64,000 bases of DNA from an uncultured Eubacteriales bacterium (GTDB taxonomy: Bacteria > Bacillota_I > Bacilli_A > RFN20 > JAISJY01): positions 348-64,347 of the forward strand of contig CAZYEI010000002.1 in the NCBI GenBank assembly GCA_964646425.1, read 5' to 3'. The translations under genes and the position numbers were made by a program. Positions 43,399 through 51,120 of the stretch are shown here, piece by piece. The notes below the pieces were generated by a model, which did no database searches, was not told the origin of the DNA, and saw only the letters and a program-made list of their open reading frames with translations. Positions within the stretch are counted from its first letter, which is position 1; each line of letters starts with the position of its first letter.

Positions 43399-46300
43399 AT
43401 GGAGAAAAATAAAAACTCACAGATAGGTTTAAAATCTATTGTTGCTTTTCTTGCTGCTGCTATTTTTGTTTCTTCTATTAGCATTGGTCATGCTAAATCA
43501 AAAGAAGATAATAATGGTAAAAATGAATTAACAACAATTGATAAAATTACTGGAAGTATTGATTATTCAATTGATGAAAAAAGTTTAAATAGAGATTTAG
43601 TACTTGATTCACGTGATAATGAAATTGATGCTAACACAGAAATTTCAATTATTGTTGAATTAGATGGCAGTGCATTAATAGATACATATAAAAAAGCCGG
43701 ATATGAAAATGTTTCTGATTATGCTAAATCAAAAGAAGGTAAAGCAAAAGCTAATATTAATTTAAAAAATCAAAAGAAATTAATTAATAGCTTAGCTAAA
43801 AAAGATTTAATTAGTGAAGTAACTTCTAATTACTCTATATTGTTAAATGCTATTACAGTAAAAACTGAATATAAAAATTTAACAAAAATAGAAAGTTTTT
43901 CAGGAGTAAAAAATGTAATTATATCTTCTAATTATGAAAAACCTAAAACAATGTCAGGTTCTACTGGTGCTGTTTTTAATGATGCAAATGTATATGAAAC
44001 AGGAATTTATGATTCATCAGATGTTGAATATACTGGTGAAGGAACTGTTGTTTCAGTATTAGATACAGGTTGTGATTATACGCATTCTGCTTTTCAAACA
44101 GCTCCTTTAAATCCTCGTCTATCAAGAGAAGATATTAATGATGTGTTAGAGTATTCAATGGCTTATTCTGTTGATAAATCAATTACTGTTAATGATGTTT
44201 ATTATAGTGAAAAAATCCCATTTGGATTTGACTATGCTGATGGTGATTCTAATATTTATCCACTACTAGAAGATCATGGTACTCACGTTGCCGGCATTAT
44301 CGGTGGTCAAGATGATGTAATCACTGGTGTTGCTGTAAATGCGCAACTAGTTATTATGAAAGTATTTCCTGATAGTGAAAGTGGAGCAAGTACTGAAGGT
44401 ATTTTACAAGCATTAGAAGATTCAGTTCTTTTAGGTGTAGATGTCATCAATATGTCTTTAGGTTCAACTATTGGTTTTACTAGAGAAGAAGATGATGAAT
44501 ACATAAATGATGTTTACGAAAAAATTGAAGAAGCTGGTATTTCATTAGATGTTGCAGCCGGAAATGAATATAGCGGTGGCTATGGTGGCGATTTTTCTAA
44601 TACAAACTATGCATATAACCCTGATAGTGGAGTTGTAGGTAGTCCTTCAACTTATAAACCTGCAATGGCTGTTGCTTCAATTAATGGTATCTTAGAACCA
44701 TATGTTGAAGCAAATGATGGTGAAACAACTGCTTTCTTAACTCCTGCTGCACATATGAATGGTGATGAATATGATTTTGTTGGTATGCTAGGATTATCTG
44801 CTGATGGACTTAGAGAAAAAGAATTTGAGTATGTTACAGTTCCTGGTTATGGAATGCAAGCAAATTATAGCGCCATTGATGTTAAAGGTAAAATTGCCTT
44901 AGTTAAACGTGGTAGTAATACATTTGCCGAGAAGATTGCTTATGCAGAAGCAGCAGGTGCAATTGGTATTTTAATTTATAATAATGTAACAGGTACTATT
45001 AAAATGTCAGCCGGTGATAATGTTAATATAGCTGTTGCATCAATTTCAAGAGCAGCTGGAGATGAAATGGCCAAGCACTCTAAAGGTAAAATTAAAGTAT
45101 CTGTTGATCAAAAAGCCGGACCATTTATGTCTGATTTCTCATCTTGGGGACCAACTCCAAGTTTGGAATTAAAACCAGAAATTACTGCTCATGGAGGTAA
45201 TATAACTTCTTCTGTTATTGGTGGAGGTTATGATGTATTATCAGGTACTTCAATGGCTACGCCAAACTTAGCTGGTGTTAGTGCGTTGATGATTGAATAT
45301 TTAAATAAAACAAAACCAGAACTTAATAGTGAAGAACGACTTGCTTTAATCAATCAAATTCAAATGTCAACTTCGGCGATTGTTTTAAATGAAGAAGGAA
45401 ATCCTTATTCTCCAAGAAAGCAAGGTTCAGGTTTAGCAAATTTATATAGTTCTATTAACACTAAAGCATATTTATCTGTTGATGGAAGTAATAAGACAAA
45501 AATTGAATTATATGATGATCCAGATAAAACTGGAATATATGATATGTCATTTAATTTAGTTAATATGTCAAGTGGTGCTTTAAGTTTTACAGTTGTTCCT
45601 TACACAATGACTGAATCTATGTCAAGTGATAATGAAACAATTGCTGAATTAGCATATATGCTTGATCCTAAAATGGAAGTTACAGTAGAAGGAAATGGAA
45701 CATATGAAAGTTCTGCAAAGAAAGTTACTGTAAATCCAAATACAAGTGTTAAATTAAATGTTACGTTAACATTAAGTGATAAAGATAAAGATTATTTAGA
45801 TAAAACTTTCGAAAATGGTATGTTTGTTGAAGGATTTATTGAATTACAATCATTAGAAGAAAATATTAATGAAAAAGATAATATCGATTTATCAATTCCA
45901 TATCTTGGATTTTATGGAAATTGGGCACAAGCTCCAATTTTTGATAAGGATATATTTGAAGTTCAATCAACAGAATTTGATAATTCTATAAATGAAAAAG
46001 ATAAAATAAAAGCAGATTATTATGCTACAACTTATTATGGTAAGTATTATGATTACTATATTATTCCATTAGGTTCATATATTTATGAAGTTGATTCTTC
46101 TTATGATAGAATTCCTGCTAGTCAAGATAGAGCAGCAATTACAAATAGTTCTTCAGGAATTAATGGACTTGCTGATGCTTATTTAGGAATGCTTCGTAGT
46201 GCCAAGAAAATAGATGTACAGATTATTGATGTGTCTACTGGAAAGGTGATTTACGAAGAAACACAAAACAATCAAAGAAAAACTTTCTACAATGGAAGTG

Positions 46301-51120: not shown

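Follow-up and report, generated by a model that had tools for sequence, protein, structure and literature searches.

A giant surface subtilase with an internal leucine-rich-repeat array, clustered with an Opp-type importer in gut Firmicutes: a possible system for protein foraging

The giant protease gene and the importer genes beside it

The DNA analysed here is a window of 64,000 nucleotides (nt), of low G+C content (24-32%), from contig CAZYEI010000002.1 of an uncultured Eubacteriales bacterium. Its central feature is a giant gene, the longest open reading frame (ORF) of the region, which runs as a single open frame from an ATG with the ribosome-binding site GGAG 8 nt before it and encodes a surface protein of 2573 amino acids (aa) that we call the giant protease. 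Upstream of it on the same strand lie, in order, a lipoprotein gene, the genes for OppA, OppB, OppC, OppD and OppF of an oligopeptide-type importer, and a gene for a membrane protein of about 80 aa; together with the protease these make up the eight-gene cluster that is the subject of this work (Table 1). This association with an importer had been missed by a preliminary description of the gene made from its sequence alone, which had proposed a fusion of an S8 subtilase, with a PA domain, to a long leucine-rich-repeat (LRR) array and a C-terminal membrane anchor.

The domain order given in that description agrees with the map that we obtained from Pfam and from structure models, and all three families for which it had suggested searches with hidden Markov models (HMMs), S8, PA and LRR_5, gave significant Pfam matches. 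The catalytic triad is complete as claimed, with its three motifs LDTGC (D222), HGTHVAG (H293) and GTSMATP (S618) all present, as is the oxyanion-hole asparagine (N389, in AAGNEY); the expected PA domain is inserted within the catalytic domain. Using a set of 35 aligned family members, which also served for the C-termini and lipoboxes described below, we found these four residues to be invariant at about 38% identity. In a phmmer search against the PDB, residues 208-875 matched solved C5a peptidases and SpyCEP, with E-values of 6.5e-72 for 7edd, 1.2e-66 for 5xya and 1e-56 for 3eif in a range extending to 1e-55. The NCBIfam SGO_0316/SGO_0317 model (NF040553) aligned to residues 55-1031 at 263 bits, whereas its cut-off is 1400. 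On this basis we class the head of the protein as a predicted S8A subtilase related to the cell-envelope proteinases but not belonging to the curated streptococcal subfamily. The segment that precedes the catalytic domain resembles a pro-region, has a mean identity of 33% within the family and probably acts as a propeptide.

Beyond the head, what had been described as a beta-rich spacer of some 800 aa resolves into an fn3_5 domain of the type found in C5a peptidase and SpyCEP, followed by a stretch of about 500 aa of immunoglobulin (Ig)-like beta-sandwiches, approximately five domains in all, that ends in a Big_2 domain. Residues 837-1290 gave no Pfam match. The AlphaFold2 model of residues 836-1290 consists of consecutive beta-sandwiches at moderate confidence, with a mean predicted local distance difference test (pLDDT) score of 64. 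Foldseek pointed to no more specific fold for this spacer, giving only generic Ig/Fn3-like matches, among them cadherins, PapD-like chaperones and the MG domains of complement.

The LRR array that follows is matched by LRR_5 in eight stretches, with a score of 417 bits against a cut-off of 27.7 (E 8.7e-127). It is arranged in three blocks (residues 1436-1637, 1718-2119 and 2189-2229), with xF anchors every 22-23 residues that give about 34 units, and the earlier count of more than 20 was therefore right in kind and an underestimate. Because no DNA-level tandem repeats of the relevant period were found in the giant gene, we conclude that the repeats are old and diverged and are not the product of a recent expansion. 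Sequence matches to this part of the protein include 4fs7 and 4gt6 (2e-31) as well as PcpA and TpLRR; 4cp6 and 6mlx are among the fold and sequence matches, and a Foldseek search with the last block returned 4gt6, 4h09 and 4cp6.

A second AlphaFold2 model, of residues 2125-2573 (mean pLDDT 79), covers the end of the solenoid, a tyrosine-rich loop of low confidence, three three-helix modules and a terminal transmembrane (TM) helix. The modules, modelled with high confidence (pLDDT >90), account for the three helical repeats of the preliminary description, and from the model we read them here as a putative membrane-proximal stalk. Spectrin-like and 14-3-3 folds were considered for them and set aside, since the Foldseek matches were non-significant and no Pfam family matched. 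The anchor itself was also as described, with a TM helix at residues 2546-2567 and a basic tail ending in KKKKNN. Because the N-terminal signal peptide is combined with a single C-terminal TM helix and this basic tail, the protein is predicted to have type I topology, which would place the protease, tethered to the membrane, at the distal tip. Neither sortase/LPXTG nor S-layer anchoring was found in the giant protease, which has the TM helix and basic tail instead.

The importer genes encode the components expected of an Opp/Dpp system, namely a substrate-binding protein with SBP_bac_5, two BPD_transp_1 permeases and two oligo_HPY ATPases, and from this family membership the importer would be expected to carry oligopeptides. 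In OppA, an insert of about 250 aa interrupts SBP_bac_5. The lipoprotein that opens the opp block has a C-terminal region that weakly resembles the end of Peptidase_M26_N, below the gathering score; no PDB sequence matched it, and Pfam and NCBIfam gave only repeat-level matches. The small membrane protein has a basic N-terminus, a conserved motif DDG[RH][TS]I.[DN]M and a C-terminal TM helix, has no signal peptide, and gave no match to a family in Pfam or NCBIfam. It may serve the importer as an accessory subunit or pair with the TM helix of the protease.

Table 1. Positions in the window of the cluster genes, the domains of the giant protease and other features named in the text
Feature	Position	Strand	Details
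Lipoprotein	34929..36014	+	361 aa; LTGC lipobox; Flg_new/List_Bact repeat
OppA lipoprotein	36025..38577	+	850 aa; VVGC lipobox; SBP_bac_5 at residues 127-181 and 429-742
OppB	38629-39615	+	BPD_transp_1 and OppC_N for OppB and OppC; 55-72% identical across loci
OppC	39618-40712	+	see OppB
OppD	40718-41989	+	ABC_tran + oligo_HPY for OppD and OppF; 55-71% identical across loci
OppF	41992-43029	+	see OppD
Small membrane protein	43010..43261	+	about 83 aa; ATG at 43010; mechanical ORF from TTG at 42992; overlaps oppF stop codon
Weak hairpin	43304-43328	+	between small ORF and protease gene
Giant protease ORF	43399-51120	+	2573 aa
Signal peptide	43399..43497	+	residues 1-33; no lipobox in the window protein
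Pro-region-like N-terminal segment	43561..44028	+	residues 55-210; within the SGO_0316/SGO_0317 match
S8 subtilase catalytic domain	44035..45432	+	residues 213-678; Pfam Peptidase_S8, E 1e-41
D222 codon	44062-44064	+	catalytic
H293 codon	44275-44277	+	catalytic
N389 codon	44563-44565	+	oxyanion hole
PA insert	44842-45066	+	residues 482-556; Pfam PA, E 1e-16; between N389 and S618
S618 codon	45250-45252	+	catalytic
fn3_5 domain	45538..45906	+	residues 714-836; Pfam
Ig-like beta-sandwich stalk and Big_2	45907..47421	+	Ig-like 837-1282; Big_2 1283-1341 (Pfam)
BspA-type LRR_5 array	47596..50118	+	about 34 units in three blocks, with two beta-hairpin inserts between them
LRR solenoid end	50119..50400	+	variable Tyr-rich loop; conserved cap Y2290, F2293, P2308, G2313, Y2314, F2323
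Three three-helix modules	50401..51012	+	residues 2335-2538; about 60-70 aa each; repeats aligned by eye
TM helix, tail KKKKNN and stop	51034..51120	+	TM helix predicted from sequence
Intrinsic-terminator-like hairpin	51132..51158	+	12 pairs then a T-run; 0.0 expected in shuffles
M16C/PreP-type metallopeptidase	21235-24123	+	962 aa
Pfam-less ORF	27648-29069	+	474 aa
Pfam-less ORF	30105-32693	+	863 aa
Pfam-less ORF	32891-34831	+	647 aa
GH3 glycosidase	553-3630	+	1025 aa; Glyco_hydro_3_C 31-286, Fn3-like 319-395, Glyco_hydro_3 497-778

Distribution, gene order and selection

We used two kinds of search to find relatives. A protein search gave at least 120 protein clusters (this count is a lower bound) of 2459-2642 aa, which align over 79-100% of the query, are 36-40% identical to it and have the same set of Pfam domains; the closest relatives that it found are 84%, 69% and 69% identical. 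Scanning GTDB with a single genome for each species gave the 80 loci on which the comparisons of gene order below are based, all of which align to query residue 2080 or beyond, with ORFs almost all of 2300-3016 aa. The 565 related stretches in GTDB species representatives are not taken as the size of the family, because the seed patterns may match other S8-PA proteases and the check for full length covered these 80 loci. The labels of the 80 are gut metagenome-assembled genomes (MAGs) of Anaeroplasmataceae, Anaeroplasma, Bacilli (RF39-like), 'Staphylococcus sp. CAG:324' and Christensenellaceae, together with Oscillospiraceae, Faecousia, Borkfalkia and the cultured Anaerocaecibacter muris CLA-AA-M11. 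The closest labelled relatives of the window protein, at about 38-40% identity, come from Anaeroplasmataceae and Bacilli MAGs. Relatives are annotated merely as 'leucine-rich repeat protein' or 'hypothetical', and full-text literature searches turned up no publication that describes a fusion of S8 to LRR_5 or a protease-Opp operon of this kind. The preliminary description had called the fusion unusual, a view that does not survive the finding of the same architecture in at least 120 clusters and 80 species-level loci. The single fusion gene is less surprising because it is common, and the interest lies in the conservation of the operon and in the part that it probably plays in gut bacteria not yet cultured.

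The same description had warned that two genes, one for a protease and one for an LRR protein, might have been joined by a frameshift or an assembly error. This is excluded. Assemblies from ENA and Logan, made independently from other samples, contain close relatives with intact, co-linear ORFs of 2571-2581 aa and the same neighbours, the clusters and loci just described have the same domain order and length, and the reading frame is constrained throughout. The ratio of non-synonymous to synonymous substitution (dN/dS, by the method of Nei and Gojobori), measured mainly against the 84%-identical relative, was 0.15 for the whole ORF, between 0.05 and 0.37 for every domain and 0.08 for the protease, and the whole ORF is thus under purifying selection. 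The second LRR block (residues 1641-2125) had the highest value of the large segments (0.26), and 0.53 when compared with a 69%-identical relative; its fast evolution is compatible with a surface that binds ligands or is antigenic, and also with a scaffold under less constraint. Mean identity to distant members falls along the protein, from 50-61% in the catalytic domain, the most conserved part, through 44-47% in fn3_5 and the spacer and 30-36% in the LRR array to 19% in the helical modules.

A profile made from the Pfam-less spacer matched 656 representatives of 50% identity clusters at E<=1e-30. Among the best 150 of these matches, a crude test for motifs found S8 and LRR together in at least 56 proteins of 2248-2810 aa, and the spacer begins at about residue 800-960 in most of the full-length proteins. 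A hydrophobic C-terminal run was found in 44 of the 56 full-length representatives and LPXTG in none. The aligned set gave the same picture, with LPXTG absent from the window protein and from the last 90 residues of all 35 relatives, a hydrophobic run at the C-terminus, at least 15 residues long, in 30 of the 35, and an N-terminal lipobox in 16. A signal peptide or lipobox at one end and a TM helix with a basic tail at the other are recurrent in the family. Predicted TM anchoring is thus a family trait, one that includes Clostridia-labelled members expected to have walls.

To place the importer, we searched the 80 loci by tblastn with the proteins of the window. Opp genes lie beside the protease on the same strand in 67 loci, downstream in 46 and upstream, as in the window, in 21; the remaining 13 loci have no Opp genes, and 11 of these stop at a contig edge. 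The importer components are each kept in 61-64 of the 80 loci (OppA, of 822-932 aa in relatives, in 64), and a homologue of the lipoprotein lies directly upstream of OppA in 48. Where this homologue was undetected, in Clostridia-type loci, a Pfam-less gene of about 450 aa fills its slot. In the downstream arrangement the gaps are mostly of -20 to +90 nt, as in a locus that reads protease, 6 nt, lipoprotein, OppA-F (L001), and in the upstream arrangement the gap between oppF and the protease gene is 141-363 nt in 20 of the 21 loci and 7 nt in the other (L076). None of the window neighbours beyond the eight genes is conserved across the 80 loci, where the extra ATP-binding cassette (ABC) matches are cross-matches of OppD and OppF. 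Because the cluster persists while its internal order is permuted, its conservation argues for functional coupling of its members.

A contig from a goat caecum MAG (JAFQFT010000058.1, which holds L013 and L040) carries two protease-Opp copies, with opp downstream of the protease in one and upstream in the other. In Anaerocaecibacter muris (L077, 17053-20007), two ORFs of 501 and 481 aa lie between a 2457-aa protease and OppA; the first of these is still similar to the query, and could represent either a split C-terminus or an additional LRR protein.

The small membrane protein was sought with an iterated HMM over ORF fragments just 3' of oppF, and was found there in 56 of the 58 loci that could be evaluated. 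Clusters of such proteins, about 78-88 aa long, number 4254 in the protein collection, and where a name is given, which is seldom, it is 'hypothetical'. When the small protein was used as an independent seed, all three of the members sampled for long contigs proved to end the same cluster, in the order giant protein (1941-2434 residues), Pfam-less gene of about 450 aa, OppA (863-932 aa), OppB-C-D-F and small protein; S8, PA and LRR_5 matches were recorded for one of the three giant proteins. At one metagenomic locus (L086, 10491-14468) an RHS/YD-shell protein of 1325 aa is encoded directly 3' of the small membrane protein gene, with a separate 495-aa LRR_5 protein nearby.

Elsewhere in the window, three large consecutive ORFs upstream of the cluster gave no Pfam match at E<=1e-5 and have no counterpart in the 80 distant loci. 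The third of them (647 aa) has weak lipoprotein-signal matches, and in the close relatives L081 and L082 a partly seen gene with a product of 642-644 aa has the corresponding place directly before the cluster. The window also encodes a permuted GH3 glycosidase, in which the Glyco_hydro_3_C domain comes first, and an Rfam scan of its whole length gave a single tRNA only.

Protein foraging as the proposed role, and competing explanations

The reading that we favour, with moderate confidence, is that the cluster serves protein foraging, with a stalked surface protease feeding a dedicated Opp importer. The proteolytic activity, its substrates, the specificity of the importer for peptides and the coupling of protease to importer, all of which we infer, would combine as follows. 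The stalk, made up from the outside in of Ig-like domains, LRR solenoid and three-helix modules and anchored by the TM helix, would hold the protease away from the cell. By the dimensions of its domains it could keep the head tens of nm from the membrane, clear of a wall or capsule. The head would cut proteins outside the cell, whether from the diet, the host or other microbes, into oligopeptides, the LRR array would serve either for capture of substrates or surfaces or as a rigid spacer, and the importer would take up the oligopeptides to supply amino acids. The context of the cluster points to nutrition rather than adhesion as its primary role. A further gene in the window, for an M16C/PreP-type metallopeptidase, is a candidate cutter of imported oligopeptides; it is not conserved beside the cluster in other genomes.

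There is precedent for such a scheme. The cell-envelope proteinase of L. lactis and its Opp system form an established route from protein to peptide nutrition (PMC7783315), and the proteases and Opp3 of S. aureus divide the labour in the same way (PMC6495380). The gut lineages RF39 and RFN20 reportedly have small genomes in which several amino-acid pathways are absent and oligopeptide import is predicted (PMC7301438).

Several observations weigh against protein foraging. The nearest solved homologues of the head are virulence proteases with narrow substrates (C5a and chemokines) and not nutritional enzymes, and a nutritional protease has no obvious need of 850 LRR residues. Importers of the SBP_bac_5/Opp type carry nickel, opines or oligosaccharides in certain organisms. 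OppA matches the NCBIfam Opp4A model (E 4.6e-37) at 127 bits, far below the cut-off of 650, and its peptide specificity is thus presumptive. In the window, moreover, the gap between oppF and the protease gene is 369 nt and contains a small ORF. Between this ORF and the protease gene we saw by eye a weak 9-bp hairpin (AAAAACAGG, a 7-nt loop, CCTGTTTTT), which the terminator scan did not flag. Because of the gap and this hairpin, the protease may be transcribed separately from opp in this genome.

The resemblance to virulence proteases raises another explanation, namely that the giant protein is a factor for colonisation or immune evasion, with the LRR array as an adhesin, the protease cleaving host targets such as complement, chemokines, IgA or mucus, and Opp either scavenging or unrelated. 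The best solved matches are indeed C5a peptidases and SpyCEP, the LRR part matches PcpA and TpLRR as well as, with a score far under the cut-off, the NCBIfam model for the HupY/LrrG adhesin (E 1.9e-34), and the accessory lipoprotein has its weak match to the N-terminal region of IgA1 protease. LRR block 2 is the fastest-evolving of the large segments, as would be expected under pressure from host or phage. However, this explanation has difficulty with an importer linked on the same strand almost universally in two Firmicute classes; the lineages that carry the cluster are gut commensals, and it is the protease head and not the LRR array that is best conserved. We judge it unlikely. The genetic linkage of protease and importer would also be expected if the protease matured secreted pro-peptides that Opp re-imported as quorum signals of the RRNPP type, and in Bacillus, Enterococcus and Streptococcus signalling peptides do enter the cell through Opp importers. 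Yet the cluster has no conserved regulator or gene for a small secreted peptide (a downstream HTH_17 gene occurs only in the closest relatives), its conserved protein of about 80 aa lacks a signal peptide and has its TM helix at the C-terminus, and a stalked enzyme of 2500 aa seems out of proportion for the task, so that we regard signalling as highly improbable.

Protein foraging can also be put in a stronger form, in which the eight genes would be a dedicated 'protein utilisation locus' in Gram-positive gut bacteria and operate as one physically coupled machine. The LRR array would capture substrate proteins or particles at a distance of tens of nm from the membrane, the protease would cut them and the products would be handed over to the cognate importer, with the insert in OppA, the lipoprotein and the small TM protein as adaptations for coupling, and the whole would be a main amino-acid route for many auxotrophic lineages of the gut that are still uncultured (RF39-like Bacilli, Christensenellales and Oscillospirales). 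We offer this version tentatively, as possible but doubtful.

The significance of protein foraging, if it is correct, lies in the many abundant uncultured gut Firmicutes with small genomes that are thought to depend on imported peptides, for which the giant protease and its importer would be a strong candidate for the first step of peptide acquisition. The giant protease would then also be a large, exposed and fast-evolving surface antigen. The cultured carrier Anaerocaecibacter muris makes the idea testable.

Comparison with known systems

Every domain of the giant protease is known, as is the logic of a PrtP-Opp pathway, and the protein is not a new kind of enzyme. It shares with the lactococcal and streptococcal cell-envelope proteinases PrtP (lactocepin) and PrtS an S8 domain with a PA insert, Fn3-like domains, a long stalk with a helical segment and a distal, surface-tethered protease. 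The sequence of steps proposed here, from protease to oligopeptides to Opp, is the same as that of PrtP and Opp (PMC7783315). Unlike that of PrtP, the stalk of the giant protease contains a BspA-type LRR solenoid and is held by a TM anchor rather than LPXTG. Its gene is linked with opp in one cluster that has an extra lipoprotein and a membrane protein of about 80 aa, whereas prtP of L. lactis is plasmid-borne and separate from opp. No gene for a PrtM-like maturase was identified beside the giant protease gene.

The streptococcal C5a peptidase (ScpA/ScpB) and SpyCEP (ScpC), to which the catalytic, PA and Fn3 regions gave their best solved matches, are LPXTG-anchored virulence factors of 1100-1650 aa that have narrow host substrates and are without an LRR array. 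LRR_5 repeats are shared with Tannerella BspA, Treponema LrrA/TpLRR, pneumococcal PcpA, HupY/LrrG and the structural-genomics LRR proteins from gut Firmicutes and Bacteroides; unlike in BspA-type proteins, the array is here internal to a protease, with Ig-like domains before it and a helical stalk after it.

Another way to view the cluster is by analogy with the polysaccharide utilisation loci of Bacteroidetes and Gram-positive bacteria, in which an enzyme and binding lipoproteins of the cell surface are likewise encoded in one locus with an importer dedicated to the products. The cluster differs from these in that its substrate would be protein, its importer is an ABC system and not SusC/D, and it has no conserved regulator; the likeness is thus one of analogy and not of homology. 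What sets the giant protease and its cluster apart from characterised cell-envelope proteinases is the internal LRR solenoid, the family-wide TM anchor, the presence of two orphan components, the lipoprotein and the small membrane protein, and the clustering with an importer of its own.

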